A model generated the notes under the pieces. It did not search any database. It had not been told where the DNA came from and saw nothing but the letters and a program-made list of their open reading frames with translations. Shown here one piece after another: positions 8,060 through 64,000 of a stretch of DNA of 64,000 nt (position 1 is its first letter; each line of letters starts with the position of its first letter). The stretch spans positions 493,681-557,680 of the forward strand of contig QPGO01000023.1 in the NCBI GenBank assembly GCA_008632985.1, in the 5' to 3' direction. A program made the position numbers and the translations under genes. Source of the stretch: Psammoneis japonica (taxonomy: Eukaryota).

Positions 8060-8194
8060 CATCTCTAATTTAGAAGAAGTGCTGTTTATCTTGTTTGTTG
8101 TTGATTTTATCATTGTTCTTTTTAAGTCTGCTGCCACGCACAAAGTGCTGCTGTCCACTGCTGTCAGAACTGGCATCGCAGCGCCGCAAATTTT

Positions 8195-13146: not shown

Positions 13147-14675
13147 ATGATGAAAGCGCACATCATACCGAACCTTTCCCTTTCGTTATTAATGACTTTG
13201 ATCCACGTTGGCACTACGACAGCATATCAAGCGACTAGTGCTAACAACAAGTGCACGTGCGACGACAGCAAGTGCCGCAGCCCCGGCTTTTCTTCAACGA
13301 CTCGAACCGACTGTTGGGCTTCAATCCGGGGTTCCATAATATGGAAACCACCCTTGTGTATAGACGACTATGAAGTGAAAGACCTTTCAAGCGTGGCCTC
13401 CTTCTACGATGCCCCGTCAAACATCACGTACGGATGGTATACATGTTGTCCTCCAGCACACAGCGAACCTCTTCCCCAGGAAGAATGTACAGACCAAGAA
13501 TATACCAGTCCCAATGGCCGAGGGGGCACGGATTGCTGGGCAGATGCCCCCCATGAACCCATGACGTGTGGAGGTGGCGAGTACCGCTTTCCCCGACACA
13601 CCACCGCTATGTTCCGGCACTACTCTCGTTGGTATTATAATTATGTGTGCTGCAAGACAGACAGTGGAACTCCGCCACTCCGGAGGCAGCTCCACACAGG
13701 AGAGGCAATGAGGGTGTTTCTCGGATGCCTGGCCTTATGTTTCACTCTTGTTCTCATCTTTGCTATCCTATGCTCTCGCAAAGCGCGGAGAAACCCGTTC
13801 AATCTCTACCTTGTAACCTTGACAATTCCAGATGCCAGCCAGTCTGCATCAGCCGTTGCATTAGGATCAGGGGCCATCAGCGGAAACTTAATATCACCAA
13901 GTGCTATGATATTCATTAAACACTTCTACAGCACAGCAAATGTTTGGCTGAATGCTGTCGTGGCTTTTCAAGTATACAGGATTCTCCGTGAGACAAAGAA
14001 TGCGCGACGAGTTGCCCCACCGTCCATCAGGCGGGTGTTGACGGAAACAGCAATTGTCTATTCCTTTGCAGTCGCTGTAGGTGTTGGTTCCGTTTTCATC
14101 TATCGTCTGCAGTTTCGCGAAGACTTTCAAAAGATTCTCGTGGCTCTGTGGTTTGTGATTGCTCTTATCCCCTTTCTTTACGTGGGGTACATCTGCGTAC
14201 GTATTTGGATTGGCAACTTACTCTCAATTTCTCGACGGACAAGAGTAATGGCACTCTATTTTTTGAGAATCATCCTTGTATATTACCTCTTCTTCCTTCC
14301 TAGTGCAATTGTGCAAGTCGTCGAAGCAGGAAATGTTGATTGGGACGGGCTACCTCTGCATTACATACATTGGTACGTGGCTTGTGAAACATGATCATGC
14401 ATAATGCACCAAATATTGATATTGTCAGACATTTCATCCCCCACATTTATTTCAGGTGCATATCTTGTTTACAGCCAATGGCGTCAGTGTCAATGGCTCT
14501 AACGAAACCCGAGGTGCTCGTTGCGACGAAGAAATTGCTACTGTGCCGCTGTATGGACGGCCAAAGCAATGCGGATGAGGATGCTCCGAGCTCTGCTATT
14601 TCAATGTTCTATCGATCCGACTCGTCAGAGCCGCTGACGGGATCAGTGAGGAGGCTTTCCACTATACTTGTTTAG
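13147..14675 (+). CDS. Multi-pass (7TM, GPCR-like) membrane protein, copy 2; intron 14373-14455; C-terminal tail cut short by TAG at 14673-14675
   Basis: Close paralogue of 3581-5296 with an uninterrupted exon 1 and the same intron position; TAG where copy 1 has TGG. Confidence 0.8.
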
Positions 14676-15155
14676 GGGGAGTTATATCGAAAGAACTCCT
14701 CCTCACGTGTTGTAGACCAAGGCATTGATGAACGGGAGGCCGTAGACAGAAAAGACGCATCTGCTGGCAGTAGCCAGCAAGAAGAAGAAGAAGAAGCCCC
14801 ATGCTTTGAACTTGCTTCCGAAGAGTCGTTTCAGGAGAACTCAATGGATATCCAGGATCACGCAATTGCTGATAGTAGCAGGCACGGAAAGCAAGTGTCT
14901 CCTCCTCCCTCACGCCAAGAACCACCCGCATAAGATCTTGACTCCCGGTATATTCTGTTGGCACATCTACTTCATTGACAAAAATTGTTTCGTCTGGCAT
15001 AGGTAGTTCATTGAAATGACGAAAAAATGTGGAGGAACCGCTTAAAACGCACAATGTTTCTCTAATACCGCTGCAAAGCGCTGAGTGGCACACAAGATCA
15101 GTGTTAAAATAGAACAGATTACTTAGCAATAAGAAATGCAATACATATTATTTAA

Positions 15156-38507: not shown

Positions 38508-38665
38508 GTGGCGTAGAATGGTTCAGGGTGTACACAAATTTTGTACCACAGTGGCGTACGTGATTTTTATGTGAGTTTCTACATGCGCCTGGTGGCGTAG
38601 ACCCAGCACAAAAGCAATAAATTTTTGAAGTTTTGTGGCGTACAAAGTCAGCATGTTGTGGCGTA
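38508..38665 (+). repeat. Array of five GTGGCGTA motifs, probably subterminal binding sites of an element at ~38480-40210
   Basis: Copies at 38508, 38551, 38592, 38635 and 38658, followed by about 1.2 kb of TA-depleted unidentified sequence. Confidence 0.8.
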
Positions 38666-40206
38666 GATTCGACATCAACAAGGCTTCGCGCAACACTCGC
38701 AACAACCAAGACTCGCTCGCAAAATCTCGCTCCCACTTTTTCACACGTTGCAGCTGATGTGGTGTTGTTCATTCGTCTCACTCGTTTTCTCATCGTGGAA
38801 CCTTCTGATGACACAGGGTGTCTTTCAGGCATGTGCATCGGTCTGATTGCCCCCCCTCTTTGGGCAAGAATGGGGTGTGTGGTTTGCTTCTTGAAGACAC
38901 CAGACCAGCCACAAGGAGCTTGCAGTGGAGAGCTGGCAAGCAAAGCACTGGGCTGCGCCACAAGGCACTGGCTGATGGGACAGCATTGGGCAAGCACAAC
39001 CACAAGCATTTTCCTGAGGGCACTTTGCACCACATGTGACAAAGCCAGAAACATGGACTGAAAAACACAGACAGAGCCAGGTTTTGCTCAACTGGCCACC
39101 CAGAATTCAAGCAGGGAGGGTGCAGCCGGAATGAAGAAGGCTGCAGGTCAATTTGAGGTCCCTCATTCTTCCCACATGCCGAAATCTTGGTCCCAGTGGG
39201 AACTTGCTTTGCATGTTTGTCAACAGCCTGCTGCAGAAGCCACGGCTGCACTGGAAATCCACAAAGGTGGCGGTGCGTGATGGGGTGGATCTCGCAAATT
39301 CTCTCAAGATTTTGTGATGCATGAGGCCAAAATTTGGGCGCAGCATCCACAGATGCTTTGGGAGAGATGCTGTGAATTTGTCAAGGCAGGCACTTCTGAA
39401 AGCATGGGTGGGGAAGGCCAGTGCTTGCTGCCAGCGATCTTTGTGAAAATCTTTTGAAGAGGATGACACTGCGTCTTCTCGATTGGAAACTTCAGAGAAT
39501 TGTTTGAACACAGTGGGGCCAAACCCGCCAAAGTGTGCATTGAATTTTGGAGAACAAAGAAGGTGCAGATCCGCAGCAGTGGCCACAAAGCTGGCAGGGC
39601 AAGGCTTGGAAAACAGGCTGCCCAAAATGATGGGCTGGCAGCAAAACACTCCTCACAAAAGATGCCACACAACTCCACAGTTCTCCAGCGTGCTGTGGGA
39701 GCTTTGCTGTCAAGCATGTAAAACCACAGCACCTCAAGTCACAGACAAGCTGCTTTGCAGGCAGAAGCCCAGCCAAGGGCCACAAGTTGACAGCCCTGCA
39801 ACATCTTCCCTTTTTCTCCTTTTTCCTTCTTTTCCTCTCTCTCTTCTCCTTTTTCTCCTTTTCAGTTTATTCTTCTGGGCCGCCTCCGGCGGCCACCTCT
39901 TTCATTCTTCCCACATGCCGAAATCTCCATGCAAAGGCAAATTTTTTGGGCTAGTTTGGGGGACGTCTTCGGAAGCGAGACTGTCGAAGAAAGTTACGTA
40001 GAATTTGTACTAAAACAGTCTGTCAATCAGTGCGATTGGGGTATTTGGGATCGCTGGACAGATCCTACGTGTTTTTTTGTGCGTACAAATTGTACTGGGA
40101 AAACCCCCAAACGCACTGGCGATCAGACCGCCTTCGTCGATCTCACTTCCAAAGACGCCCCCAAGTTGGTGACCGTTTGAATTTAACGGCGAGCGAAGCG
40201 AGCCTC

Positions 40207-43200
40207 AACGCCCAAAAGTAACCCGGATGTTAAATCTTTGGTTTGTTGAACGCACCGCGACATCATTGCTGCGGCACAGCAGTTGGCTACAATGGCAGCT
40301 TGGGTGCAAGTTACATTACAAAAACATTACAAACTGAACAATAAAAAATGTGATATGGGCATGATCAGCAAGTTTTGTTGCGAGCAACAGCGAGCCACAA
40401 TGGAGTTGTTGCAGTGCGCGCAAAATCTCTCTGGCTAGAGAGAGGAGTCGTGCGCTCGGCGAGTTGCACTAAAGCTCGTTGGAAGTTGTTGCAAACATTG
40501 CTTCTTTGGGAATGCAATCAACTGCCTGTCCTGGCCATTCAATTTTGTCACACACTTTGCCCTGTTGTATCCTCCTGGACACTGACTTGGTGCTGGGCAC
40601 CCCAGAACCTTGCAGGATTTGCGTCGCCGCTTGCTTTGATGATTCACTCGATTCACTGACATCCTCGGCACCTCTGGATGAGGCACATGTGGTTGGTACA
40701 TTGGGGGATGACAACACTGTTGTGGAAGTGCAGGTGGCACTTGTGGCAGAAAGGCAACCGGCTGTGGGAGGATGTGACCTGCGGGAGGAGGGGGTGGAAT
40801 CATTGCAAGCGGAGGACATCCTGCTGGCTGCAACAGTGGCATGGTGTTGACTGATTCCTCGGCAGCATGTGCAGGCAAGCTTTCTTCAGTCATGCTGTCT
40901 TCTTGTCTTGTGCCACTCACTGGCTTTGGAGTTGTCACTGAGCCGTCGGCCATCTCTTCTGGAACATGCTCCAAAGCATCATCAACTGCCACCTTGGTGT
41001 TGGCTTCTTGCAGTGCTTCCTGCTGCACTTGATTCTTCTGCCATTTCTTGCAGTGCTTGGAAATGTGCTCTGGGTGCTTTTTGCAAATGTTGTTCTCACC
41101 AAGAGCAAATTTGTTCCATTTCTCAGCGATGCACTCGAATGTGGAGGCGGAGGACATCGATCGATTGTTTCGAAGCACCTCTTGAATTAAGCGACAAAAC
41201 AATTTCTTTTCCTCTCTAGTGCGGATCGGTGTGTGTGGAACTTTGGATCCCTGGCAAAGGGCAAGGCATCGCAATGAAGCTGTCAGATTGCTCACGGGTT
41301 CCAACCCAGTTGCACCTTGGTTCTCGTGTGCCTCAGAGAGCGGAACGACTCCGTGTGGTGATTTGGAAACAATGTGGTCCGAGGCACGACCCCAGTGTTT
41401 CCATTTCACTTCTCCAAACAAATCCTCGTGTGTTTCATTTATGATGTCAAGTGCCAAACTGTCACAGTGTCCAACTTGCGGAAAGTCTGGTCGATTTCGT
41501 TCGCTAGCCCGCCAGTTGCAGTGATGACGGAGCACGGCAAGGAGGTTGTCACTGTGTCGTGGACCCGCGTGTGTGTGACCGAAGGACTTGGTTAGCTTTT
41601 GGTGCAATGATTCAACAATGCTTGTACCCCTGAAGCAACAATGCAATGGCAAGCCATCCTTGTCAGTCGTGTGTTGTCCTTTTGCGTCGGTCATCCTTGC
41701 GTGGAAACCAACTGCTGGCGGATCCGAGAATTCACCACGCTTGATCGCTTCTAAGACGAGATCTGCCCTTTTTCGTGCTGTTTCATTGAAGAGCAACTTT
41801 CCCGTTTTTGTGTCAACTTTGTCCCCAAAGAAATCAAAAACGGCTTTCACTCGCTCGTGCAACACATGGGGGGACGGAATGTGTCGCTTGACTCTTTTGG
41901 CGACATGTCCAAATCGACATCGCAAGCAGCTCTCCCAGTCACCTCCCTTTTGAGCTAGAACACGTTTCACTCTTGCGACATCAATGGCATCCATTGTGAA
42001 GAATGCACCACGTAGTGCTCAAAAATGTGCCGCTTTAAAGTCATGGTCCATGGGAACCTTGACCCGGTCCATCCCGTGAAATGCGTCCCCAAGAACCCGG
42101 GTGATCAATTGATGAAGTGCCCAGTCTTCACCCAACTCATGAAGGCTGTCATCACCAAGCACATGATTCTCGTCCCTCATCTTTGTTGATCTCTCTTTAG
42201 CATGTCTGTCGGCATTGTTGACAAGCTTGGCAATTGCAACAGACAGTTCATCTACAATGTCGCTCTGCCTTTGTGTGCAGGGCTCGTTTTCCTCCTCGTC
42301 CCCGTCCAAATCCTCGTCACCCAATGCAAGTGGCATTGGTGCCATGTTTTCTGCACACTCATCTTTGCTGTCATGTGTTTCAAGATTTTTCAGCTCCTCG
42401 TCAAGTCTCTCTGTTTCATTCGGTTGCAGTGTCAAATCTTTGCTCTCATCGGTTTCATCATTGTCGCGGTTCAACTCATCAGTGTCGTCACGTTGCATCG
42501 CTTCCTCTTTTTCTTCGTCCTGAACAGAGTTGCCGATGTCATCGTCCGCCCCCTCTCCCACTTCAACAGCTGGCGAATGGTCACTCTCCTCTTCCACACC
42601 CGCGGCTGGCATGCCACAGTTTGCATCACCCATTTCTTGTTCTTCGCCATTCCAATTCACTGCTGTGGGCTCGGATGACTGTCTCAATCGGCAATTTGCT
42701 TCCACAACTTCAAGTGGACCGCTGGCCAACAAAGCAAGGTCGCCAAACGATCACATGTCACACATGTCTCGAAGCTCTCCATGCTCCATTCTCCCGCATT
42801 TGCAACGTTGCCCTTTGTTTGTCATGGGAAAGTGGACTGGAGCTTGAGCTCTGTGTGTCTTCAGAACTCGGACAAGAAATCTTTTTGGAGCAAGTCTCAC
42901 ACCATGTGGTGCATCCCCGTCTTGTTGCACCACCACACCTGATGCAATTGCATTTGTGTCCTTTCTTCCAGAGGGCATTGTGTCAACCACCATCCCTGCC
43001 TCGATTTCGTGTTGTTTGAGTCTCAAAGCAAGGTTTGGGAATTGACGGCAGTGGTGATAAAGTCGCAAGCCGGCTTCCCCGTCATTGGCGCAGCACTTCA
43101 GGGCCTTTTCGGTCAGCTCATTACGCCCATCAAACACATGCCCAACTTGGATCTCCTTTTCTTTTGGCATGTGGCAGTTCAACGCCTTCTTCGCAAGCTC

Positions 43201-45380
43201 TGACAATTTGGTTTCCCCACGTCTTCTTGCAGCAAGGCCACGGTCAACCACCATCGTGCCAACATCAATGACATTTTTAGGTCAGACGAGACTTGGGGTA
43301 GGATGCTCGTCAATGAGTTTTGTGAAATCTCCATTCACCCAGCGTCCCGTAAATGCAACATCATCGCGCTTGAAGAGCATGTTCAGCTTCGTGAGAAAAA
43401 GTCAGTTGCTTTGCATCCGCCCAATGTGAACAACTAAAATGTCATTCATCACATCTGATGCAAGGATGACAACACTAGTTTTCCCGTGGAGCCGGCCTCC
43501 GTCATGTGCTGGATTCTCGAGATCGAATGAAATAACCTTGTTTTCATCATCACTCTCGTTGTCAAGTGCCTCTGAGAGAACAGTGAGTGCCGCTGTGGCT
43601 TCCTCCTGTGTTTCCAAGCATGTGATGCCCCCACGAAGCGGCAAGGGAGTCAGTCCTTCCGGGACATCTTCAGTGTCGTTAACTCCAATCTTCAACCCAT
43701 TGAAACAGTCCTCCAAAAACACTTTGTCTCTGGGAGGGTTGTCGGAGAAAGCAAACGACGGATCTAGACCATGTGAATGCAGGAGCACTAAAATTGGCTG
43801 AAGCTGTCGATGGTTGTCGCTCAGCTCAAAATGCTGCATCACTGTTTTGCCGCATTCGTTTGCACCAGATTCCAGCACCTCGAACATCTTCTCGCCGCCC
43901 CAACGCATCATCCATTTTGGGAGCTTGAACGATGCATCTAAACTTAAGACAAAAGATGTTGCAAGCCTCTTGATGCACTCTGCATCAAGCATCCGTCTGG
44001 ACTGCTCCACAACCACACAGAACATGTGCACGAGCCACGCTGAACAAGGGACTGCTCCACCCAGTTCCTCTGAGAAGTGCTCGGGACAACGTTGTATTTC
44101 GGATGGGTCTTGGCAAAAGCTGGTGCACCCAAGAGCCATCTGTTTGTCTCCCTGCCGTTGTCGAGCAAAGGAGCCCCACTGCATTTCCTTGCTCTGCCAA
44201 GCCTCGCAGTGATTCCGCTTTATTGTTTCGGCTTTAGCTGCAGGACCAATGCCCTTGACGGCGTCTTTAATGATTGTTTTCATCAGGTTCTTATCAATTC
44301 CAGAGGTGTGAGACAGATGACAAGGAAAGCATTCAAACACATGGGGGTGTTCAAGACGAAGCTGCTCCAACACAGCGTCATTGGTCAACTGCCACGTGAA
44401 TTGTTTTCGATCCTTTTTCGCGACACCCATTTCCGCCTGAAGACCATTTTCTCGTTGGCACGGCTTGCACAAAAATTTCTCCGGTGCTTCAAGAACATAA
44501 TTTTCATGCTCACCACAGACAAGGCGACTTGGGTTGCTTTTGCCACAGGCCATCATTCCTTTGTCGCATCCGCAGCCACCGCATTTTGGAGTGAAGTCCT
44601 CCCCTGGCATTCCACGGAGCATCCATCTAAACTTTTTGAGGCGATGGAATTTCTTCCAGCTGTCTCGAATGTCAATTGGATGATGAACAAGGGGGAACTT
44701 TGGAATGTCCCAGAAATCACCTTCTTTCACTGCAGCCAAGCTTTTCTTTGATTCGATGTTCAACAAGCATTCTTTCACCAGACCCGACCGTCTTTTCATG
44801 CTTTGCTTGGCGTTCACCTGATTGTCGAAAATGTCTCTCTGGTTTGAAGCCTCAGACATCCATGTTGCTTCGACAAGATTCATTTGTTGCTGCTCTTCTG
44901 GTGGCTCATGCTGAGGTGGTTGTGCGGCAACAGGTGCCGGTGGTCGGTGGTTCTGCTGCTGCTGGTGGTGCTGGAGGCACTGGTGGCGTGTCTTGATGAT
45001 TCGTTGCTGACTCACGTCCAAAGTGAGAAAGGATGGCTCCTCTTTGGGATGGACGACCATGAGTCATGGCGGTGCGAGGCCGTCCAGCACCTTGCCTGGC
45101 GCCACCGCTGCTGCCACGTTTGCCGGCCATGGTGGAGAGTGCGGCCGCAATCGGCACATTGTCTCAGTGCGTGTTTCATTGGCCTTTTCTCTTCTGCAGT
45201 TGGATGCAACAGACACACAAAGCATGGATGCAATGATGCCACTTTTCTAGAGATTGGCCATCGACAAAAGAGAAGAAATTTGTCATTGCGATTTTTCTAG
45301 AGCTCTAGAAAAATAGCAGCATCGCATTATGGTACAGGTCATCCCGAGGTTACCCTAAGTAACATCCGTTTGGGAGGGTT
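40207..45380 (-). mobile_element. ~5.2-kb DDE DNA transposon with imperfect terminal inverted motifs
   Basis: Left cccaaaagtaacccggatgtta versus the reverse complement of the right end cccaaacggatgttacttagggtaacc; encloses one large minus-strand transposase relic. No clean TSD found. Confidence 0.65.
40435..45130 (-). pseudogene. Large DDE transposase relic (DUF6729-like Cys N-terminus, DxxH motif) with an inserted DEDDy 3'-5' exonuclease domain
   Basis: GGARQGAGRPR N-terminus; CGGCG...C..C...FPCHLSH.SGIDK; LSLDASFK, FSDNP, VLGDAFHGMDR, RGTSIVESLH; exonuclease VISFDLE...VNGD...LKCCAND. Broken by TGA stops and frameshifts. Confidence 0.75.
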
Positions 45381-50023: not shown

Positions 50024-50422
50024 TGTTCTGGTTTTTGTTTTAGCTCGTGCAAAAAGAATTTATGAGCGGTTGACGAAATCTTCGGGTGCGTGGACGAATG
50101 GAACGATCTGGTCGCTAAATTTGATGAGGTAGGAAAGCACGACTCGGTCGTCGCGAATTTGGAGCCGTCAATTTCTACAGAGCTTTGTACTTTACCACTC
50201 ATTCACGAAATAACTTCAATGTAGCACTTAGGAGACTGATGATCTTTCATATTTTTTTCTCCAACCCGAACAATGTCATTATCATCCAAAATTTTGAAAA
50301 ATTGAAATCGGAAATTCGACTGAAGACTCGGATTGACAGAACCACGCACGTCGTCGCGGTCTACGGGGTCTGCGGAGGCGGCGCGCTGTCACAAATCACT
50401 GATGTTAAAGCAGCGGCATCAC

Positions 50423-51255
50423 TGTCAAGATCGTCGACACCTTATTTCTATGCTGGGAAGGCGGCAACATCACGAAGATGGGGGCGGTTGACAAAGTGTG
50501 CGGGTCGAGATGTTGTGGAAATTCTGCTGAGCCGAAAGCTCTCACTCTGTTGCACGACCGATTGTCGCAGCTCTGTTCTGGAATCATCGAGACATTCGAG
50601 ACTGACTGAGCACTCAAAGTGCAAGATGTGGAGGTCGCAACATCAAAGCAATCACATCTCATGTGTTGCATTTGAAGTGTGTTGTTCTCAGTGTGCTCTC
50701 CCGCACTCGTGTCAGCAGCAGCTTTCTGCTGTTTTCGATGGGTTCCAGTCCCAGGTGGGACTCCATGTGACATTGGGCCTGCAGAATTCTACGTGCGAGC
50801 TCTGTGGCATTGACAGTTTGCCCGGGCACGTTCTTCAGACATTGAAGAATGCACCCAGTGTGTTTTCATTCTCACAAATGTTGAAAATGGAAAGCCTTTG
50901 GCTTTGCAAACAGGGAGCATGAAAAAATTTTGGAGAATGTGACATGCAGAAATGTGCACGCGTGACATGTGACGCGATCCAAAAAACCATTGATGTCACA
51001 GTGCAGCAGTGCGAGGTCCCACCCAGAGCTGCAACGTTTCTTTTGCGGAGCGCTTTCCAGACGAGACCAGAATGTGTGACGTGGGGATGCTGTCAAGGTG
51101 GATGGTTGCCAAATTGTGAGTTGACAGAGAACCACATGGCGCGACACTGGGTCAAGGCATCGATGAGCGGCACCAGCCATGTGGGGTCAATGCATCACTT
51201 TCCCGTCTTGCCCCAGTCTGTCAATGGACAGACCACATGGTGTGCTGTCGTCACA
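50423..51255 (-). repeat. 3' LTR (833 bp, TG...CA)
   Basis: Minus strand begins TGTGACGACA and ends TCTTGACA; 51081-51255 is directly repeated at 61248-61418. Confidence 0.75.
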
Positions 51256-51266
51256 TCCCTCCTTCC
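51256..51266 (-). other. Polypurine tract GGAAGGAGGGA
   Basis: Immediately precedes the TG of the 3' LTR on the minus strand. Confidence 0.75.
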
Positions 51267-52444
51267 AACAAGAGAGCCTCGCTTGGATGAAAAAGAGTGC
51301 AGACATCCTGTGGACTGTGTGAGAGGGGGTGTGATGGTCGCAGATGGCCCTCCTCCATGGAATCACACCCACGATTGGATCCATGACTGACTTGCTTTTT
51401 TGGAGATCAAGGAGCGCAGAGAGGTGGACGCAGAACCCGCCTTGCTCAGTGTGGCTTGGAACATGTCCCAGAACCCGGGTGAGGTCAGAGTTCTGTGACA
51501 ACATCCTTCATGTGTTGCTGCACTGTTGTCACGTGCTCAGTTCTGTGTGGCTGTCTGGTGTTGGAATCAAACCGGTGCATCCGTTGTGGCACCGTGCATG
51601 TGATTTTGGTGCACCTGCCTTGTCGCACCCAAGTCGGCAACCCTGGAGGGGACGGTCACTGGGACAGCCAATTTTGCCAGTGTTGCAACCCTTTTTCTTG
51701 GTGGCAAGGACCTGTGGCAACATGACAGTGGGTGCAAAGGCTTGCGGTGTGACGCATGAGCAGCAACAAATGAAAGCAGGTGGATGATTTGAACACACCA
51801 TGACTTCAACTCTGCTTGGCTTGAAAGTTGAGTGTTGCACTGGATGATGCACTAGAGAGCCAAGCCACTCTGATGGCACTCATCACATGTCTGACACCTT
51901 GAGGTTTAGCAGAGGGGCTTCTGTCTCCAGTTGTGCCCAACACGTCTCAGCAATGTGATGGGATTTTTTCGTTGACTTGTTGTTCTTTCTGTGCTTGACT
52001 TGAATCACTGAGAAGTCAAAAGGCCCTGCCACAAAATGTTCCGTGAGAGGGAACACAAGGGAGGCCACATGATGGATGATTTCTCTGATGCAATGACCCG
52101 CACTGCCTTCTTTGGGTTTGCCAGCACATGCATTGGAGGTTGGTTGTCGGCTCTCTGTTTCATCATGTTGGGCCAAAATCGACCATCCACTGAGGACTTT
52201 GTGTGAGCATCTTTCTTGAAAGTCTTGGTGCCACCATCTCATCATGCAAATGCCGTGTGTCACAGCATGGTGCAGATTGGATTTGGCCCAATCAACCTGG
52301 GCCATTTGAAGCACTGGAAGTTGATCAGTTTCTGGGTGGCAGGCGATGAAAAACATCTTGGTCAATGAACATGCTGTTGACTTGCAGAGTTTTCTGAAGA
52401 ACGTGGCAGTCTTGGGGTGAACCGTGCAGGCAATTGGGGGGGGG

Positions 52445-52499
52445 NNNNNNNNNNNNNNNNNNNNNNNNNNNNNNNNNNNNNNNNNNNNNNNNNNNNNNN
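52445..52499. other. Assembly gap (55 N)
   Basis: Run of N following a G homopolymer. Confidence 1.
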
Positions 52500-55400
52500 T
52501 CATCCACATCTTGGTTTGCTGCTTGCCATTCTTGCTCGTTGGTTCCTGCTGAGGTTGTGTTTTTGTTGTCCTCCAAAACAGAAGAATCATCAGAGTTGGG
52601 CGCAGGTCATCGCTCCACATGCTTCACATTGGTTCCCATGCCCATTTGGCATCTGGTTCTGCCTGTTTGTGACTCCCTCTGGGCAAAAACCCTGGCCACA
52701 GTTCCAGTGGGGCCTCCGCAAAATCTGAATTCATGCAGAAAAATTGCCATTGTAGAGGGCAATGGAGGCATTCTGGCCGCATTTTCTTTTCTGAATTGGC
52801 CTGGTCTGCCCAATCTGTGGATGAATGGCAGCTTTTGGAGTTCACACAAAATGGGGGTCACTTGTTTGACAACTTGGCATGGTCCACGTGCACTTGGAAC
52901 AGCACCTTTTCCGAGATGCCGCAAGAGCAATCTGATTTCACTTGCTTTTGCACCACTGCTGTGTCTCCAGGAGCAAACTTGCATTGCTTGATCCCTTCGT
53001 TCCGGAGCTTGATGTGTCGGTGGTGCCATTCCTCATTGAGGACAGTCAATGGGGGCTGTTGTTTGAAGATCAAGGGGCAATTGACTCAAAGTCATCCAGT
53101 GTTTGTTCCGGCATGGACGCCGAGTCATGCATGGCTGGGCCACAATGTTGAGTGGAAAAGGAAACTCTCTGAAGATGGCCACCAACAACCATGGAAGGGC
53201 TGCAGTGTTGGTGGGCGATGCACTCCACATGCACAGAGCAAAGCACACTGCCTGCTTCTGTTGCACCATGGATGAGGTGTTGGCTGCATTGATGCACACC
53301 ACCTTGTTGAGGCAATGATGGAAGTGCTCATTGCACACTGCTCAGTGGTTCTCTCTTGAGACAGGAGGTGCCAGTGTTCTCAACATTTCTGTCAATTGAA
53401 CAAACACTCCCATGAACAACAAGTCAGCATCCACAATGATCAATCGTGGAGGGAGGCCAGCAATGATGAAAAAATTTTGCCGTTGTGACATGTGCCATGG
53501 CTTTGGCCAAGAGCACCTCCTGAAAAAATCTGCAAAAGCAAAGCTCATTGCACTGTCCAGACAGGTGAGGATTTTAGTGTCACCAAGAAAGGTTGATGGT
53601 GCTTCACCAGGCATCCAAAAGTCTAAAAACACTGCTGACCAGGGTTCGTTGCAGGTGAGCAAATGGCAAATGCAGTTGCATCTGTGCCTCATGTGAGGAA
53701 CAGTTTGCCAGATTACAGTGTGCGCAACCCACAACACCTTCATGCAGGTCACAGAGCACACAGCATTCGAGTGATGCTGCTGTGGCCTGCAAACAGAGAC
53801 ACATGACATGCAACAATGACAACCCAGTGCAGAGGTGTGGAGGAATGCCTCAGACCCAAAGTTGACATGCTCTTGTTGACTTAGATTGTTCAAAATAATG
53901 TGTCAGTCCATCTTCCACCTCCAGCTGGTTCTTGACCAGAGTGGCACAGTGTCCGTTGTCTGGGAACACATGGTGTGATGGCTTGGTGATGTCAGCAGCC
54001 CATCGAAGCATGATGGCTAAATCATGGTCACTGCAGTCGCCTCTGCCATTGCTCATTGGACGGGAGCGGGAGGGTGGACACCGAGTGGAATGGTGTGGTG
54101 GGACAAGCTGGGATTGGCGCCGCCAGTTTGTCCCTGAGTCAACCAGCACCATGCACTGTGATGGGCATCTGCACAAAATAAATTTTGAACCACATGTGCA
54201 ATTGCTGCCACAGCTGGTGTGGCCTGCAGCTTTTGAATTGGCACATGGTCGGGTGGCGCCGCCATTTTCTGAGAATCCAAACAATTGAACTGCCTCGTGC
54301 AACCGCCTCGTGCAACCACACCGGTCCACACTTCAACTCAGCAGTGTCCCACATTGCAAAGAGTGCTTGGTGGAGTTGTTGTTTGTCATGGGGATGTGTG
54401 ATGCCAGGTGCCACCAGGCTTGTTGAAAGGCAGCACAGGCATCCGTCGAGTGGCCTGGTGGCCAACAGGGATTTGACAAACTGTCTGACCTTTGCTGAAT
54501 GATGGTGCTCCACAGCCACTGACCGCACCACAGATGAAGGTTTCAACACTGACAGATGTGCAGGGTCCAAGTGCTCATTGTCTCTTGTGCATTCGTCCAG
54601 ACAGTTGCTCATGGGTGCCGGATCCATTGCAGCATGTTCTGGGCAAAATGTTTGCATGCTGTGCTTGGCACCAACACTGTCATGCAGTGGTCCACCATTT
54701 CAATGGCACCACCTTGCTTGGTGTTCAAGCGTTCGAACACCCGAACATGCCAAGAGATGCCGTTTGCAGGTGGCTCTTGTTGGATGCACCAAGTTGGGTT
54801 GGGTGTGCAACCGAGGGACAAACAAGACTGCAGCTTGAAAAAACAGCCAAGCATGCAAGACCTTGACGTGTTCCAGCATTTCAGAACACCATGTCTGCTC
54901 TTTCGGGTTTTGCAAGCAGGCCGTGGGTTCTAATTCTGCCCACAGGAAAACTGCAACAAACCAGTCCATGCATCTGACTGTGAGGGCAGAGTGAAGCACT
55001 GCCTCAAAAAATTGGGGGCAGGCCATCAACCAATTTCAGTTGTGAGCATGTCTTCAAACTCAGTTGCCAATCAATGAGCACTTGTGCTGCCAGTTCAATC
55101 AACGCTGCCACGAATGCCTCTTGCAACGGAACAGCCACAGGGCCCAAACACACAACGGTGCAAGATGGGACCATTGCCCATGCCAATTGAGAGCTGTGCT
55201 GCCAAGAGGGGTGACCACGAACCTGAATCATCGGGAATGTGGAAAATGCAAAAGAACAGGTGAGAAAGGGATCTTGTGCCAGGATGTGACCTGAAGGAGT
55301 CAGTCCCAGGGATGACCGTTTCTCTTCAAGTTCCTCACTCATGACCGGCTGAATTGTGTCTTTCTGGTCTTCAAACATTCCAGGCTTTTCTTGTGGCTCT

Positions 55401-57120
55401 TGTTTGTCTTGGAGGTGAAGACACCAATCAGAAGCACTTCTGTTGTGCCTTGCAAGCACATTGCATTCTGCAACCATGTTTTGCTGGGTTGGTGTTTGCA
55501 TGTGAGTGCGCAAAGCAAAAGCTCCTGAAGCCACTGTTGCACTTGGCTGTCAGGAGGATTCGCCATGGGGTCCATGAACTCTTGCATGCTGTTCACATTG
55601 GACAGCAGGGTGAGTTTGCATCCCACCAGACACTTTTGCCACTTGGAGAAGACCCGACGTGGAACGGATGCCACTCCCACAAAAGAATGACATTTCTTTT
55701 CAGCCGCGGTGGTGGCTCATGAAAGAAACTGGATGGGTCGAAGGCGGATTCCCCTTTGCTGCAAGTCAAAGAAACAAGGCCCCCCTTGGACTTCTGCCAT
55801 TTCTGTCTCATGTGCCAGCAGGTCATCTGGGTCTGCTTGACATGGTGCCACCACCATGGCTTCCTTTGACCAGTCCATCTTGACATAAAATCAACAGTTG
55901 CAATCGGGGTGTGCCAAAATCAGGTCGGATGCAATGTTTTGCAGGAGGTCCTTGAACAGTTTCTGATGTTCAGCACACCACTTTGTGTGGAACAATTTGT
56001 GTTCTTCAGACATGGGGACCGAACCTGGCTTGGGAGCTTTGCGCTGCAATCTCAGAAATGGTTGGATGCATGTTTCGACATTGAACATTCAGTTCTGACA
56101 AAAGCTGCAGACACCAATCAGGATTCGAAGGTCCGTCCACATTGCTGGGATTGGCAGATGTCTGAACACATCTGGCTTGGAGAGAGCTGGAGAGCTTCAA
56201 TGTGGGTGCACATCCACCCTGATGAACTCAACACAGGGACACAAGAACTTGCACCTCTCAAGCTTGGCAGTTGCCCAGTGAAAAACAAGGACTTCGTGTG
56301 CCACCCGGAAATGAAAGATCAGTGGGTCAACGTCTGCTGCCCAGAGGAGAACATCGTCAATGACCATTTTGTTGCCACATTTGTCTGGACATGGAATGCA
56401 TTTTATGATGACCCCCACACTTGTTTCATGAGGTTGGGATGGTGGTTTGCCATGCGCTTGTTCCATGCTTTGCTGAGCGTGAGTGTCATGGCCATGAAAA
56501 TTGCACGGGCATTGATGAACCCCACTGGCAGGACTGTCCAATGGCATTTGCCGGTTGGTGTGAAGAGTGCAGTTTTGGCTTGTGACACCTCATCCAGCAC
56601 CACCTGCCAACAGCTGCAGTCCAGGTCAAATGTGAGGAATGCCTTTGCTTGAGGAGGTGTGTCTTGGACAGCATCGTCGCACCTTGGGACCGGAAAAGCA
56701 AAAGGTTGGGTGACTTGGTTCAATTGCCTGTGCGACACACACAAATGCCAAATGCAGTTGCACCATGGGACATGCTCTTGGTGTGCCTTTGCTGCCAGGA
56801 CCAACACAAGAGCTCCCCACGGCTCTCGTTTTCCAGCTTGGTCAATCCATTGTGATCAAATGTGACGCGAGCTTGTCCATTGCCTGGGCTTCATGGGGGG
56901 CACATCTCGGAGGTTTGCATCATGCCGGGGTGACCGTGCTGGCATCAATGTGGTGCAAGAATCCTTGAACATGCTTTCTCAGGCCTTCCTCACAAAAGCA
57001 ATCACAGCATTGCTCAATGATTGTGGACACCTCATCCTTGTGTTGCTCTGGGCACTCATGCCAGTGGATGTTGCGATCGAACTCAGGTTGGTGAATCACA
57101 GGGTTGAGTTTTTTTTTGTC

Positions 57121-57238
57121 TGTTTGTGGAGGTGAAGGTGCCTTGGATTGGTGCAGCAATCTGCCGAATTCCTTAAAGTCCGTTTGTGGAGGCAAAGGTG
57201 CCTCAGATTGGTGCAGCAATCTGCCAAATTCCTCAAAG
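57121..57238. repeat. 60-bp tandem duplication inside pol
   Basis: 57121-57180 and 57181-57238 are near-identical. Confidence 0.95.
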
Positions 57239-60200
57239 ACAAGCTCCATGCCATCCAACTGATCGGGGCAGTTGCACAGGTCCATGCATTGGGATGGGAG
57301 CCTGGGGCACCACATTTTCTTAGCGACTTGCACTGCTCCATGTGAATTGGGGGATGGCTGGTTGGGGACTGCTGGGCCCTTGGGGAATGTGTGCATTGGC
57401 TGGTCTTGTGCTTGGGCACTGTCAGACGGAAGAGAAATGCAAGTTAAAGATGCAGGTTTAAATGCAGGGGATGGGTGCGCATCAGGTGCAGAAAAGCAGA
57501 AGATGCACATGTGTTGACTGCAGATTCCAACTTTTCCACTGGACCCTGGTCAACCAATCACTGCAGGTCAACTGGAAAGACACAAGGTTTGGCTTGTTCC
57601 CACAGTTGGGGTTGGAACAGAGGGAGAGCAGGTGAATGCAAAGGAGACACACATGGAGCCAGAGGGTCCAACGTCAGAACCGGCGAATCTGCTGAATGTC
57701 ATTCTTGGCTGTCCATCTGGTTGCAAGAATGCTTCTTGGCAGGCAGCTTCTGGTCTTGCGCCGACTCTTTTGCTGACTCATGTGTCGACCTGTGAGACCA
57801 AGACTGTGGTGACAGATGGGAGAAAAAGGTTGACACTGTCACTGACCTGAAATGCTGTGTGATGGGCTGGTTCAAAATGCAATGGCGGGGGTGGACGATG
57901 CACAACTGACACTTTTGCCGCAGCTGGTGTGTTGGCTGTGTTGGTGACCTCGTCAATCACATCTTGCAGTGCTTGGAACTTTTTGTTGCGAAACGACAAA
58001 GGTTGTGCCGGGCATCATGTCATGACAATCTTTGCTGGTGCGTGGGGCTGACCAACCAGTTTAGATGTGAACACTGCATTGAGGCCATCTGCTGTCATTT
58101 TGCAGGTTGCCTGCCAGTTTCCCAGCATTTTGCTGGTGAAAAAATTATGTGGGAATTGTGCACAATTTCAAAAAAGAGATGAGGTTGGATCAAAAAATGC
58201 AACAGAGATGCACAAAATGCGACACAACATGACAAGCAACAATGGCAACCATGTGGGGATGAAAACAACATCCACACCAGTGTCAGGCATGCTGTGGCAA
58301 CAATGCAAACATGACAAGCAAAGTGCAGCTGATGCAATGTTTGTCTTGCTGGTGTCCATCTGGTGGCTCTGATTGATCATTCAAGATGATGCCATTGTCG
58401 TCAACATCCCACATTGTTGCTGCGCGTAATTCACACAGAAAATTGCAAAAAAGCCATGTTGACAACGGCCCTGAAATCAACCACAAACTGCATCCAGGGT
58501 CAACATGGGCGCACATCTGCACTTGTCACTCACCACAAGACATGTCTGATGCATTTTGTTGCACAAAAATTAGTCCATGGCATCACCGGCAGCATGCCAT
58601 TGTCAGCATTGAATGCTGCACAAAAAGCACGGGGACGATGGAAATCAACTCTTCTGTCGCATTTGTCTGTCTGTCACCCATTTGTTTCGTAGAATCTACG
58701 AGAAAGTTCCCACACATTTTACACTCTGTCCATGCTTCATCTGACACCTGTTTGTTCCTGACAACCATTTGTTCTGCGCGCAGTGTGGCTCAGAAAAAAC
58801 GGGCAACACATGGGTGGCTGGTTGTCCGGGTCATCTTCGCAGTCATGAGCGGACTCCTGTTGTGGACTTTGTGGGGCTGGTGGCGGCTTTGTGCCGGGCA
58901 ACTGCAGACCAGCCTTCTGGCATTTGGGTTTCAGTGATGCCTGGAAACATGCCTTGTGAGTGGCCACCATCGTCAACAGAGACAAGACAGCGGACACCAG
59001 TTCTGCCACATGACTGGAGGGGAACCCTTGCACTTCCCACTTTAGCTGGGTGTCACCAGGGATGGAAGCACAAGCAGCCACCAGGGCAGCTGTGGCAATG
59101 GCAGAAGCAGGTTGAGCCTGCTGCTGACTTGGGGATTGATGTGGGTTGGACCACCCATGCTGGGTAACACCCCTTGTTGCCATGGACTTCTTCCTTGCCT
59201 CAACAAATGCCGTGTGTGCTTTTCCTGTGAGGACTTGTGCTTGTGGGTCCAAACAACATGGGTGCTGATTCCAAATGTGTTCAAACCAACGTTCATGATT
59301 TTGAGGGTGCCCTGCACAGAGCCAGCACTCCAACAGAGGATGTGCTGAACCTGTGGCATTTTGCAAAGAGATGTTTCAGCTGCGCTGAGACAGATGCCCT
59401 CAGTGCCGGTTGCACGGAGATGCGCCGGTGGTGTGTCTGCAGAAGCAGCAACAAACAAATTGGCTTCATCTTGCACAACATTGTGCCATGTTCCTGGCAT
59501 CCAGTCTGCCTGTTGGACTTGAGCCGGTGACTCTGAAGGTCCCAAACAGTCTGCATCAGATGGAAGAGCCTTGAACACCTTGGCTGGGCCTTGAGTCAGG
59601 GCCTGAGTGACGCGAGACGGGCCTGACACTCGATTTGTTGCAGCTGACGTTCAAATGAAGCAGCTGCTGCATGTGCAGTTCACAGTCACACATTGGCCTG
59701 AGCATTGGCTTCATTTGCTGGTGCTGCTGGCATGTGATGTGGTGGCTCTTGAGAGTTTGCTTGTTGGTGCATGTCAGCCTTGAGACCCACCCAAAAGACC
59801 TGCGCCAAATCAATGGGGCAGTGCTCGGTGAGGTCGCACAAGCTTGCCAAATTTGTGAATTTGATGTGACACTGTTCCACCAAGAGCTCAACACATCCAC
59901 CAGCTGACGGATGAATTGGGCTTGTTTCAAGTTTTGGATTGCCGTCACAGTGCACAATGAATCTCGGACTGAGTCGCCCAGAAAATTGGCCCACAACAAG
60001 AAATGTGTGAAGCAAAATTGGCACTCACAAAAGCAATGCACAAAGCTGTTCCAAAAGTGGCGGCTGTCCAAACTAACCAACAGAGCACCATTTGGGCTTC
60101 CCAACTGTCCCAGGGTTGGAAAAGCACCTCCCAAATAAATGCACAAAGCAGCCAGGAATGGAGCTGGGTTGAGAAGCACATTTGCAGCAAACACTGTGGG

Positions 60201-60803
60201 AAGCACCTCTCTGCTGTTGTTGATGTGGGCTGGGTCATTGATCATGACCTGTGGAATCGTGGCTGCCACATTGAACTGTTGAATGGGAATGCAACCTCAT
60301 CAAGAGTGTCAGCGTTGAGGTCAAGCACAGCCGCATGTGCGTTGACCATCAAATTGAACACACAGCAATGTAAAGTGTGGCAAACAACCATGGCCATGTT
60401 CACTGCTCCGGCCACCGGCACATTAAGATGCTCGCCAATGTTGTTACAGATGGCAGGATTGGTGTGCATGAAAGTGCCTGCCGGTGCCTCCGTTGCAACA
60501 ATCGGCCACTCAACTCCTGCCGAATTGTCATGCAGCCACTCCAGCGCCCCATTGGTGACCTCCTGAGGAAGATGTGTGCAATCAAAACGACTCAACAGCA
60601 TCTCCAATTTTGTCTGTGATGAAGCGACTGCATTGCTTGACATGCCAGAAAGAGCCTGTGGAAAGTGCCGCTCACATTGCTGGATGCTCAAGGTGGACAA
60701 CTTGTCAGGCTTTGCCGGAACTTGAAAAGTGCTGTCATTCCTGCGGGCATGCACCAAATCAAGTGCCAGGTCAGAAGGATGATTTGCCCCACTCATCCCT
60801 CGA

Positions 60804-61530
60804 GACGCGTTCCAGGTCCAGGTGGAACCTCGCATCACTGAACTGTGACATCGACAGTTTTTTGAATTGTGTCGCATGTTGCACATGCACATTTCTGTGT
60901 GATTTTGGCAGTGCAATTGCTGGGTGGTCCATTCAACAACTTTTAACATTTTTTCCTTCTGTGCCATTCTTGAATGTCTCAAGAATGGCGTGGGGCAGGT
61001 GGGTCATCCAAAACTCTGAGCAGGTGCAGGGACATGTGCACCACAAACTTGGTCATTCATTTTACATCAAAGATGAACACATCCATTGATCAGAGTACAA
61101 ACTGCAGAGCTTGCACGCAGAATTCTGTGGAGCAAATGTCACAAAAAGTCCCACCTGGGGCTGGAACGCGTCATGAACAGTGCCCACAGCTGTTGCAAAC
61201 CCAAAAGGAAGATCAAAGGGCAACCACCGGGCAGGATTCCATGCAATGTGGGGATGCTGTCAAGGTGGATGGTTGCCGAATTGTGAGTGGGTAGAGAACC
61301 ACATGGTGTGACACTGTGTCAAGGTGTCAATGAGTGGTGTCAGCCGTGCAGGGTCAGTGCATCACTTCCATCTCACCCCAGTCTGTCAATGGACAGACAA
61401 TGGTGTGATGTCGTCACAAGTTCCAAATGCTCATCCTTGTCGCAAGTGTCAAGATCGTCAACAGCGGAGGCAGAAACGGAGATGGAGCGGTTGACTGTGC
61501 ATGGCCAAAGGCAAATTCTGCTGAGCCGAA
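60804..61530 (-). repeat. Rearranged 5' LTR region
   Basis: 60821-60900 and 61103-61167 match 3' LTR segments in inverted orientation; 61248-61418 and 61447-61530 match in direct orientation. Confidence 0.75.
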
Positions 61531-63299
61531 GGCTTGTGCGCATTGCAATCTGCCTGTTGCAGTTGGAGCCAGGAATGTTGATGCACACTGCACTGTGCGC
61601 TGAACCTCAGGGGTTTGGGTTGCTTTTGGATTGAGGCTTGAGACCATCAACCATGATGCATCAGCAATGCAGCATGCCCCTCCAAAAGCAACACTGAACC
61701 CCAAATAACATCATCAACCATTGAAGCAAGAGAGAACAAGCACACTGATGGTGGCAGCCGTGCTGTCAGTCATGTCTGCGCCGATGCCAGACAACTGCAT
61801 CTTCTTCGGGCTGCTGCAGGGTTTGCCAAAGCATTGTGAATGATTTGAGGGTTGTTCAAAAAACCCCAAACACGACCGCCTGTGAGCATTGTGGTGGTGT
61901 CAGTTGGATTTCCATGCATCGGGGCAACCAGTTTTTCCACAGCTTTGGAAAGAACTGGGATGATCCCCACATCATGACAATGAAGCTGCGGAGGTGGCCA
62001 ATTTGATGGGATGACAATTCAACAGGACCCATCCAATGCCCATTGCCGACTGCATGGAGCAGTTTGGGCAACAGGGATTTGACTTCTTTTTTTGGTTCTT
62101 GTGCGATCTCATTGCATGGGCCGCCAAACAACATGACGTCAAATTCGAAACGCAACATTGGCAGGGAAAAAAGTCATGGCATCCTCACATCTGAATCTGT
62201 CTCACATCCACAACAGTTTGTCCTTTACTTCTTCTCCTCTTGATCAGTCACAGCCATGCCAGCAGCACAATGCGCTGTTGTCATCACATCTCTGAATGCT
62301 GACAAACAGTTCTGCTGGAGATTTGCCGCAGCTTTCAGCAACGATCAATGATGTTTTCCAATCTGACCGAGACTGCTCCCTCCATCCTCAAAACCGTCTC
62401 CTGCATCAATGACCGTGGCCTCTTCCTCTGATGCCATTGCAATGGCAATTCTTGCCATCTGCATGCCTGCCTCATGCCATCTCAATCCAGGCTTGCCCAT
62501 GACGGTTCCACTGGACCAGCCTGACCCAGTCAACCAGTCAAAGTTCCTGGAATGCTTCCAAGTCCTCTCTGGGCTTTGCCATTTTTCAGGCTGGTGCTCG
62601 TCCTTGGTCTGCAAATGTGAACGCCACCATCAGTTTTTTCATGCTCTCTGCAAAGACATGCTGTCACATGATGGTGCAATGCATGGTGCCAGCACACGAC
62701 AACAACAATGGCAAATCCACAGTGTTGTCAGAAAGGGCAGAAGTCCACAAAATGCTCTGAAAACTCAGCAACACCGCAGAAACAGTTTGTCATGATTGGT
62801 TTGTCTGTGCTGCTCTCTGAGAGAGGGATCTCGAATGGAATTTCGACAAGGCTGTCTTCACCAGCTCCAAGACAAAAGGCATCGTGCCCCACCATTGTGG
62901 ATGTTAAAAGGATGGACAGGTGACACGAACTCTTGAATGGAGTTTCGATGAAGGGTGCCATGCACCATCACCACCTGTCCTTATGAACCTCGTGACGCAG
63001 CAAGTGCTTTTGAACAACCAAAACACTGAAGAAAACCAACGCATCATGAAGAACAAAAGTCAAACCGCGGGGCAATGGAAAATCTACGTCAAGCGTCAGA
63101 TTTGCACCGACAAAATTCAAAGACATGTTGTTCATGGAAACATCAAAGCAGAGCATGGATTACAAAGTTGGACGGATGCCCCACGTGATGTGGGGAAACG
63201 CCAACTGCCATTCAATTGTGTGAGATCAATGTGAAGTGCGCAACAGTTCGCAATTCCATGGGTGAATTTTTCTTCAGAGATGTACAGCATGCATCTCAG

Positions 63300-64000
63300 G
63301 GATGTCATTGGCATTGTTTGAGAACAATGGGTTTGAGCATGATGGAAAAATGCAAAAGTGGAACGAGAAAAACATTCATGGTGGTGAATTCTGGATCGCG
63401 GCAGATGGCTGTTGAGCATGCTGGTCACTGACCAGGTCGGATCGTCAACAGGACGCAGACTGAAGATTTTGCCAACACAGCTGGGGCTCTCAAACGGACT
63501 TCCAACAACTGGCATCTTAGCCACCTTGCGTGCCTTGGGCGTCTTGAATTCTTCAACATCATCAAGGTTGGCGTGGGCGCTGACCAGTGGAGGGCTCTCG
63601 AAAGGTGACTCAAAGAATGGTTTCTCCGCCGTTTCCTCCGCCTCTTGCATCTTGTGGTCTTCGACACGGACAGAATCATTGATGTGTCGAGGGCCATTGA
63701 ACACCTCGCCTGCAGCGGGATCACGTGCACTCACCAAAGCACGACTGGACAGAGCATGATGAACGTCAGAGGCTGGACGAATGCAGTTGACGAAGACAGG
63801 AGTCTTAACTTCTTCCTCAGCCTCATGCATCTCGAACTCCTCGCCCGCAGCGGGATCGCACACTTTCCTCATGCCTGCATGGTTCACCATCTCCTGCGCT
63901 TCGAGCATCTTGCATTCTTCAACCTCTTCAAGGACGAAGTGGTTGGCGCATCGAGGGCTCTCGAACACCTCCCCCGCAGCGGGATCGCACACTTTCACCC
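63300..64000 (-). pseudogene. Hypermutated C-terminal repeat region of a second GcvT-like paralogue (continues beyond the window)
   Basis: KVCDPAAGEVFESP, FVNC and ESP repeats align to KVCDPATGEVFESP and FVNY at 48380-48680; TA nearly absent. Confidence 0.75.

Follow-up and report, generated by a model that had tools for sequence, protein, structure and literature searches.

We describe a near-complete and locally restricted loss of TpA dinucleotides in the genome of the diatom Psammoneis japonica, seen in a 64,000-nucleotide stretch of contig QPGO01000023.1 (GenBank assembly GCA_008632985.1, forward-strand positions 493,681 to 557,680; hereafter the window, numbered from its first letter). 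Dead transposons, tandem repeats and pseudogenes within the window have exchanged almost all of their TpA for TpG or CpA, and the host genes that flank them have normal TpA. Comparison of one dead gene copy with two intact paralogs places the change on the dead copy; the loss is derived and not native. We consider it very probable that a real, locally targeted process acting at the DNA level is responsible. The fuller statement, that such a process acts and that it works through the deamination of adenine, has in our view a slightly better than even chance of being right.

TpA is depleted from sharply bounded blocks

We profiled the observed/expected (o/e) ratios of dinucleotides per kb over the 64-kb window, with the host regions of the same window as the reference. 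Five blocks departed from host DNA, with TA o/e falling to 0.00–0.10 and TG and CA o/e rising to 1.6–2.0 in the per-kb profile. In the main block, 50450–64000, we counted 45 TA against 548 expected at the host-region density of the window (Poisson P ~1e-171). The per-kb values between 51001 and 63000 were 0.02–0.10 for TA, 0.20–0.43 for CG, 1.66–1.94 for TG and 1.67–1.98 for CA; host DNA at 13001–38000 gave 0.42–0.87 for TA and 0.84–1.24 for CG. When the depleted blocks were pooled (25,101 bp), 115 TA remained (o/e 0.07; CG 0.44, TG 1.69, CA 1.72), compared with 1392 in the pooled host regions (34,403 bp; TA o/e 0.59, CG 0.96, TG 1.15, CA 1.17). CpG is therefore also depleted in the TA-poor blocks. 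The blocks carry the long-term footprint of TpA depletion together with CpA and TpG enrichment, and their overall TG and CA counts are balanced (2737 and 2600). The blocks, none of them assigned a strand, are as follows.

1..2300: repeat block poor in TA, at the left window end, TA o/e 0.07, CG o/e 0.36–0.64
7050..9027: partly depleted repeat block, TA o/e 0.23–0.33, CG o/e 0.82, summed depth in run X1 300–740
9028..12984: TA-free block, roughly single-copy, with two pseudogenes inside and 4 TA in 3957 bp
38665..39718: TA-free block of 1054 bp, with zero TA between 38664 and 39719
40471–45247: TA-depleted block overlapping a dead DNA-transposon-like gene
50450..64000: main TA-depleted block, extending past the window end, CpG strongly depleted except at 63001–64000 (CG o/e 0.79)
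52445–52499: N gap within the main block

The edges of the blocks are sharp to about 50–200 bp, and intact genes adjoin them. At the right edge of 9028–12984, a TA at 12776 is followed by TA at 12985, 12991, 12996, 13000 and onward; at the left edge of the main block, the TA at 50449 is followed by the next at 50790. The blocks hold remnants of reverse transcriptase (RT), transposon-like and nuclease genes. We scanned Pfam open reading frame (ORF) by ORF and disregarded sub-threshold matches; above the curated cut-offs only RVT_1, XPG_N and XPG_I were found, and the ORFs of 1–2300, where the summed depth of run X1 contigs is 195–1481, and of 38665–39718 had no Pfam match. Two TA-poor blocks are separated at 39719–40470 by a normal-TA island of about 750 bp, which may be either what is left of host DNA between two insertions or an insertion of more recent date; the fineness with which the TpA process is targeted is a question on which this island has a bearing.

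An earlier note, written from the letters of this DNA, had claimed a near-absence of TpA in its repeat and transposon blocks. The claim holds for the main block and alike for four others, and the hand counts given with it were exact (1 TA in 52501–53400 and 12 in 3841–4140). The note laid no emphasis on the CpG depletion of these blocks. One of the ranges it listed as nearly TA-free, 7100–12900, has to be divided: 9028–12984, with its 4 TA, fits that description, and 7050–9027 is only partly depleted.

Paralogous genes place the change on the depleted copy

Three tandem paralogs allowed the change to be given a direction.

3574..5450, plus strand: paralog A, unmutated reference copy in host-type DNA
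13143..15039, plus strand: paralog B, unmutated reference copy, beginning about 160 bp past the end of the TA-free block
11170..12339, plus strand: paralog C, dead hypermutated copy of the A/B family, inside the TA-free block 9028–12984

Paralogs A and B are 85.7% identical over 1909 bp, and paralog C has 67–71% nucleotide identity to both. Over the 980 aligned sites with agreement between A and B, paralog C departs from them at 213 by a transition and at 63 by a transversion. None of the 38 TA common to A and B is kept in paralog C; 17 became TG, 13 CA and 3 CG. The CG common to A and B fared similarly, with 1 of 41 kept, 21 changed to TG and 12 to CA, whereas the common TG and CA were kept at 50 of 65 and 42 of 63 sites. 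Counted per strand, A>G changes in paralog C affect 34 of 64 adenines after T, compared with 18 of 99 after A, 22 of 116 after C and 14 of 117 after G, and C>T changes affect 35 of 76 cytosines before G, compared with about 16% elsewhere. In this comparison of paralogs, A>G is in excess at TpA (53% per strand after T against 12–19%). The two products, TG and CA, from which the earlier note had concluded that both strands were changed, do arise about equally, by the polarized counts as well as by the overall ones.

In the control comparison of A with B, all of TA, CG, TG and CA are retained alike, at 74–76%, and the skew therefore belongs to paralog C. An outgroup protein, P0121 (43% identity to A), puts the change on paralog C: at five columns C reads Cys, Cys, Arg, Cys and Cys, while A, B and the outgroup all agree on Tyr. 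The TA loss is derived.

The proteins of the A/B family are rich in Cys in their N-terminal part, continue with hydrophobic stretches and contain no Pfam domain. P0121 is their sole homolog in a collection of 5.8 billion proteins, and the window has three tandem paralogs, one of them dead.

Affected elements have lost tyrosine codons that their homologs retain

The blocks contain the following recognizable elements.

40438..45063, minus strand: dead DNA-transposon-like gene with DUF6729, a 3′–5′ exonuclease and a transposase-like C-terminal region
56406..56855, minus strand: Ty3/gypsy RT remnant (RVT_1, E=2.5e-7; Ty3 RT chains 7q5b and 4ol8 at E ~1e-13)
9177..10214, minus strand: XPG/FEN1-like nuclease pseudogene (XPG_N at 9903–10214, E=1e-8; XPG_I at 9177–9899, E=3.6e-8)
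8195–8930: tandem array of 3.9 copies of 185 bp, inside the partly depleted block 7050–9027

The DNA-transposon-like gene reads as a single frame of 1542 codons with zero frameshifts and four in-frame stops, all of them TGA. Its protein family comprises 1278 homologs at E<=0.001 in a representative library, with full-length forms of about 1500 amino acids; the DUF6729 and 3′–5′ exonuclease domains were identified in homologs P0122, P0125 and P0161. The ORFs of the window copy contain 0.3% Tyr, 4.9% His and 3.5% Cys, compared with 3.4%, 2.5% and 2.0% in host ORFs, while the 150 homologs listed for the protein have a median Tyr content of 3.26%, and 149 of these 150 have at least 1.3%. Tyr occupies 21 columns in half or more of 18 long homologs; at these columns the window copy reads His at 5, Cys at 3, Trp at 3, Phe at 4, Tyr at 2 and another residue at 4; it keeps 8 of 8 conserved Cys, 7 of 8 His and 25 of 30 Gly columns. 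A metagenome scan for the family, which gives no measure of how widely the footprint is spread, yielded two related loci with normal TA o/e (0.61 and 0.64).

The RT remnant reads His, Cys and Cys in place of the Ty3 Tyr residues of DYR, SGY and GKY. Given the Tyr content of the 149 homologs, the normal TA of the related loci and these RT substitutions, the affected families are not natively free of TA or Tyr, a possibility that the earlier note had itself raised against its proposal. The motifs that it quoted are all present, namely DLDCSCWQ and GKC in 56406–56855(−), GTDC at 9482(−), CCAND at 43095(−) and GLPLH at 41655(−), and the reading of conserved Tyr as Cys or His extends from the RT to the transposon columns and, with one Arg, to paralog C.

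The tandem array has six alignment columns with TA in any copy. TA stands in all four copies at two of them, and at the other four the copies differ, each carrying TA, TG or CA; at several more steps one copy has TG and another CA. Because copies of the array resolved the same step differently, the changes postdate the tandem duplication. Repeat pairs within 50.4–64 kb differ by 54 transitions and 12 transversions, including 11 cases in which CA and TG alternate at the same step, 10 CG/TG differences and 8 CG/CA differences.

Among the 137 ORFs of at least 60 amino acids in 50.1–64 kb, the RT was the only one with a Pfam match above the curated cut-off. A search by indexed words turned up no longer relative of the RT ORF, and the gypsy element is therefore not mappable beyond the RT; probably, hypermutation has destroyed the shared words. 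Sequence searches of the PDB with the two largest transposon ORFs and the XPG ORF gave no match.

The transposon family is eukaryotic and mostly unannotated. Its exonuclease is of the DEDDy type, and its C-terminal region, with a conserved RGTSxxESxH motif, looks transposase-like. One source calls a member "ribosomal protein S27AE", apparently by mis-annotation. P0140, a 250-amino-acid metagenome protein from JGI, is the sole nearly Tyr-free homolog among the 150 listed (Tyr 0.4%, Cys 4.4%, His 4.8%) and is 59% identical to the window copy; it may represent a further hypermutated copy, carried by an environmental relative.

TAY is struck harder than TAR

The loss of TA depends on its flanks, with TAY being struck harder than TAR (Y, pyrimidine; R, purine). 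Counted on both strands, per thousand, TAT falls from 11.2 in host DNA to 0.37 in the blocks and TAC from 12.0 to 0.67 (an 18–30-fold drop), while TAA falls from 8.2 to 1.76 and TAG from 9.1 to 1.0 (a 5–9-fold drop). The TA that survive in the blocks lie in YTAR at 54 of 115 sites, compared with 232 of 1392 in host DNA (odds ratio 4.4, P=8e-13), and in RTAY at 11 of 115, compared with 434 of 1392 (P=2e-7). The outcome in paralog C also tracks the flank: RTAR became CA in 5 of 5 cases and YTAY became TG in 9 of 13, so that 14 of 18 sites match the prediction that the preferred adenine is the one in 5′-TAY-3′. A 3′-pyrimidine effect is tentatively seen at adenines outside TpA as well (41 of 155 against 13 of 177).

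TpA loss runs ahead of CpG loss

CpG was lost to TpG and CpA in the same blocks, 33 of the 41 ancestral CG in paralog C having become TG or CA. This would be the ordinary decay of 5-methylcytosine (5mC) if these stretches carry 5mC. Such decay has no means of removing TpA and explains none of the TpA loss seen here. TpA loss is ahead of CpG loss in parts of the window: TA o/e is 0.07–0.20 with CG o/e 0.63–0.82 over 41001–45000, values also found over the transposon gene at 40438–45063, and TA o/e is 0.08 with CG o/e 0.79 over 63001–64000. The stretch 51001–63000, with its CG o/e of 0.20–0.43, looks older. The two processes also differ in that TA outcomes in paralog C have marginal strand runs and CG outcomes have none. 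Thus, TpA loss appears to be separate from CpG decay and faster.

Duplication alone does not select the targets

A single 3157-bp contig of run X1 covers 10131–13290 at a depth of 66.3, with 2 other letters and 5 gap letters. As the depth of X1 over host DNA is about 59, roughly single-copy DNA is affected. Two kinds of duplicated sequence were spared, namely the 1.9-kb duplicates A and B and a repeated stretch at 2669–3335 with normal TA. The latter is either a repeat that escaped the TpA process or a young repeat. Taken together with the affected single-copy DNA, these sequences show that duplication is not the sole selector of targets.

The surroundings are host DNA, and on the evidence of the following genes we take the source to be nuclear DNA of a diatom. 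Genes are densely packed in the window, whose long ORFs encode ordinary enzymes. A solanesyl/polyprenyl diphosphate synthase gene (22758–24329, minus strand) has a top match at 73% identity, and its named best relatives, at 55–60%, are all from diatoms (Seminavis, Pseudo-nitzschia, Nitzschia, Chaetoceros and Haslea). Over 18503–19469 (minus strand), a contig of run X2 skips five stretches of 76–97 bp with CT..AC ends, which are GT..AG introns of the ABC-F gene; since this contig is spliced, X2 behaves like an RNA data set. No cover by X2, which may be RNA, was seen over 7338–13340, an observation that carries no weight as evidence of silence.

The tail of the GcvT ORF (48317–48676) and the window end (63456–63995, minus strand) have a repeated motif in common (32% over 180 amino acids by tblastn; a 46-bp stretch at 93%), which may be a module of a repeat protein or a copied fragment. 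We considered 63456–63995 as a host-gene copy for polarization and rejected it, its nucleotide identity being 51% and confined to the repeated motif.

Discussion

Our observations are best accounted for by a process that would act on chromosomal DNA and convert TpA to TpG or CpA in dead transposons, tandem repeats and pseudogenes only. It would run near completion in its targets, prefer TAY to TAR, spare neighbouring host genes and be overlaid on the decay of CpG to TpG and CpA in the same stretches. The likeliest chemistry would be the conversion of adenine in DNA to hypoxanthine by a polynucleotide adenosine deaminase, ADAT2/TadA-like or another enzyme of the deaminase fold. Hypoxanthine pairs with C, so that A would become G, and attack on either strand would yield TG or CA. 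Coding capacity would in this way be destroyed without the making of stops, every Tyr codon and every TAA and TAG being lost. Nucleic-acid adenosine deaminases require a 5′-U/T before the target A, and in ADAT/TadA substrates the invariant U33 precedes the wobble A34. It is by this context preference that an ADAT2/TadA-like enzyme may be linked to the process. Such an enzyme would be expected to have an HxE-PCxxC site; the 64-kb window itself has no deaminase gene. We infer that silenced DNA would be the target in vivo and that the process may serve in defence.

The earlier note had stated that no described system has this signature, a statement that no longer stands. A 2026 preprint (Mettrop et al., bioRxiv 10.64898/2026.01.13.699255), based on mutation-accumulation lines of the chlorarachniophyte Bigelowiella natans, reports, in its available text, hypermutation of TpA to TpG or CpA only. 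Its target is integrated DNA of giant viruses (nucleocytoplasmic large DNA viruses, NCLDV) and virophages, and two integrated viral regions received 231 of 302 nuclear point mutations in these lines; 230 of the 231 were A>G or T>C, at TpA, about 1000-fold above background and in some lines only. The same text describes 124 TpA-poor, CpA+TpG-rich genome clusters, with TpA-poor coding sequences enriched in RT and DDE domains, and its authors propose an ADAT2-like DNA adenosine deaminase. As far as that text goes, the two cases are alike in the changes of TpA to TpG and CpA on both strands, in the discrete mobile or foreign regions lying beside normally mutating host DNA, and in the TpA-poor, CpA+TpG-rich footprint in clusters with RT and DDE domains.

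They also differ. The host there is a rhizarian and here a stramenopile. De novo mutations are seen in the B. natans text, whereas ours is a fossil footprint; the NCLDV region has a Rho of 0.45, whereas depletion here is near total (o/e 0.02–0.10). In the window the loss has struck a gypsy element, a DNA-transposon-like gene, a tandem array and pseudogenes, one of them a paralog of genes next to it. It is accompanied by CpG decay, and TAY is preferred over TAR, while the available preprint text makes no mention of CpG, of trinucleotide context or of diatoms. We regard the P. japonica footprint as belonging to this very recently described kind of process, in a lineage new to it and near saturation. 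Our analysis adds three points to the picture: TAY is preferred, TpA loss is decoupled from CpG decay, and duplication does not act as the trigger. In the open-access and bioRxiv papers searched we found no report of TpA depletion or hypermutation in diatoms.

Two better-known systems invite comparison. Repeat-induced point mutation (RIP) of ascomycete fungi is likewise a DNA-level transition hypermutation that kills mobile elements, leaves sharp-edged blocks of skewed dinucleotide composition and can take in adjacent or single-copy sequence. RIP proceeds by C>T, mainly CpA>TpA, and so creates TpA and stops, whereas here TpA is destroyed and TAA and TAG are removed; C>T changes outside CpG in paralog C amount to 10–24%, with no strong context. 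RIP is also triggered by duplication, whereas the duplicates A and B are spared here and roughly single-copy DNA is struck. The TadA/ADAT2–ADAT3 and ADAR enzymes resemble the process in converting A to inosine, read as G, with a 5′ U/T ahead of the target adenine, and differ in that their established substrates are tRNA or double-stranded RNA. Amphioxus ADAT2 has been reported, in the part of the source available to us, to deaminate A and C in DNA (PMC10354150).

A thymine-directed version of the process, in which T at TpA would be oxidized or otherwise modified (for example to 5-hydroxymethyluracil or 5-formyluracil, by a dioxygenase of the TET/JBP type), mispair with G and end as T>C, is the rival that concerns the chemistry, and we regard it as unlikely. 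5-Hydroxymethyluracil is found preferentially at TpA in dinoflagellate DNA, and 5-formyluracil is mutagenic. The signature would be identical by symmetry, and the TAY preference can equally be written as R-T-A. The 5′-U/T requirement of adenosine deaminases nevertheless fits the observations directly, and the B. natans preprint, in its available text, favours adenosine deamination, albeit without proof. A rival that concerns timing holds that extrachromosomal cDNA, excised transposons or viral DNA were hypermutated before integration, in the manner of APOBEC3, and inserted already TA-poor, the block edges being insertion boundaries. The sharpness of the edges and the normal-TA island between two depleted blocks would suit this idea, but paralog C stands in tandem with A and B, has nucleotide homology to both and is roughly single-copy. 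Moreover, copies of one tandem array resolved the same step differently, depletion is near total and not partial, and the B. natans mutations, according to the available text, arise in integrated DNA. We therefore think editing before integration improbable.

ADAR-like A-to-I editing of double-stranded transposon transcripts, fixed by reverse transcription and reinsertion, is more doubtful still. To our knowledge, ADARs are known from animals only. A>G change with a similar 5′ U preference, as the available preprint Discussion notes, and the presence of a gypsy retrotransposon among the affected elements would both accord with such editing. However, the DNA-transposon-like gene, the tandem array, the XPG-like pseudogene and the dead tandem paralog are equally affected, and the strands are equally struck (TG:CA 17:13 and 2737:2600), with no sense-strand bias of A>G. 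The earlier note's argument from the diversity of targets against RNA editing is thus borne out, and its DNA-level process confined to particular stretches remains the best fit to the target set. It is similarly hard to believe that the pattern arose from sequencing or assembly, by long-read miscalls at modified bases. Only DNA that probably carries modifications shows the pattern, a scaffold gap lies in the window, and no platform is recorded for run X1; yet the k-mer contig of X1 matches the TA-free sequence at 10131–13290, and miscalls would not yield balanced, flank-dependent TG/CA outcomes or the matching CpG decay. Least credible to us is native composition, whereby the elements or foreign DNAs themselves avoid TA, for example under pressure from a nuclease that reads TA. 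Dinucleotide avoidance can be strong in mobile and viral DNAs, and host DNA here is mildly TA-poor too (o/e 0.59). Against this stand the normal Tyr of the transposon-protein homologs and normal TA of the related loci, the conserved Tyr positions that read Cys or His, and the fact that the copies are dead, with in-frame TGA stops and almost no recognizable domains.

Several points weigh against a targeted, adenine-directed process on resident DNA. TpA is self-complementary, and A>G and T>C on opposite strands therefore yield the same sequence. The 3′-pyrimidine effect outside TpA is unmatched by any depletion of AC or AT in the blocks and comes from a single unrooted comparison. Same-strand runs of TA outcomes in paralog C are marginal (11 against 15.7 expected, P=0.05), and CG outcomes have no strand runs. 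The comparison of A, B and C is rooted at the protein level only, with a single outgroup. Paralog C has many other transitions (A>G outside TpA at 12–19%, C>T outside CpG at 10–24%), so that age, besides TpA targeting, shaped it. Neither the 1.9-kb duplicates A and B nor a repeated stretch with a summed X1 depth of about 505 (2669–3335) is poor in TA, and duplication alone would therefore not explain the choice of targets. Run X1, whose platform is not recorded, is possibly the assembly's own sample. Mutation accumulation in the diatom Phaeodactylum tricornutum, in the part of the source available to us, pointed to CG, CC and TG as mutagenic contexts and a GC>AT bias, with TpA hypermutation going unmentioned (PMC6604790).

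The footprint has practical consequences for annotation. Both strands of 50000–64000 carry many overlapping ORFs of 150–260 amino acids without a family match; the loss of TAA and TAG leaves long spurious ORFs in all six frames, which gene callers would over-predict. TpA loss also hides transposons from domain searches, as the single Pfam match among the 137 ORFs of 50.1–64 kb illustrates. Moreover, the context preference hints at a natural A>G editor of double-stranded DNA with a defined TAY context, a possible tool.

With somewhat less than even confidence, we suggest that TpA hypermutation may be a widespread genome defence of algae of the SAR group (stramenopiles, alveolates and Rhizaria), present in at least Rhizaria and diatoms, in which a TAY-specific adenine deaminase, independent of 5mC and aimed by a silencing signal, would act on resident DNA. 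If this is true, it would be the adenine counterpart of RIP, erasing Tyr codons and TAA and TAG instead of creating stops. If confirmed genome-wide, P. japonica would represent a second lineage with TpA-targeted hypermutation of selfish DNA, and the hunt for the enzyme would become tractable through the repertoires of deaminases and of TET/JBP proteins in footprint-bearing and footprint-free algae. Diatoms would then be the first ecologically dominant lineage of this kind, with genetic tools in related species, and an observation made in a single species would become a phenomenon shared across SAR.

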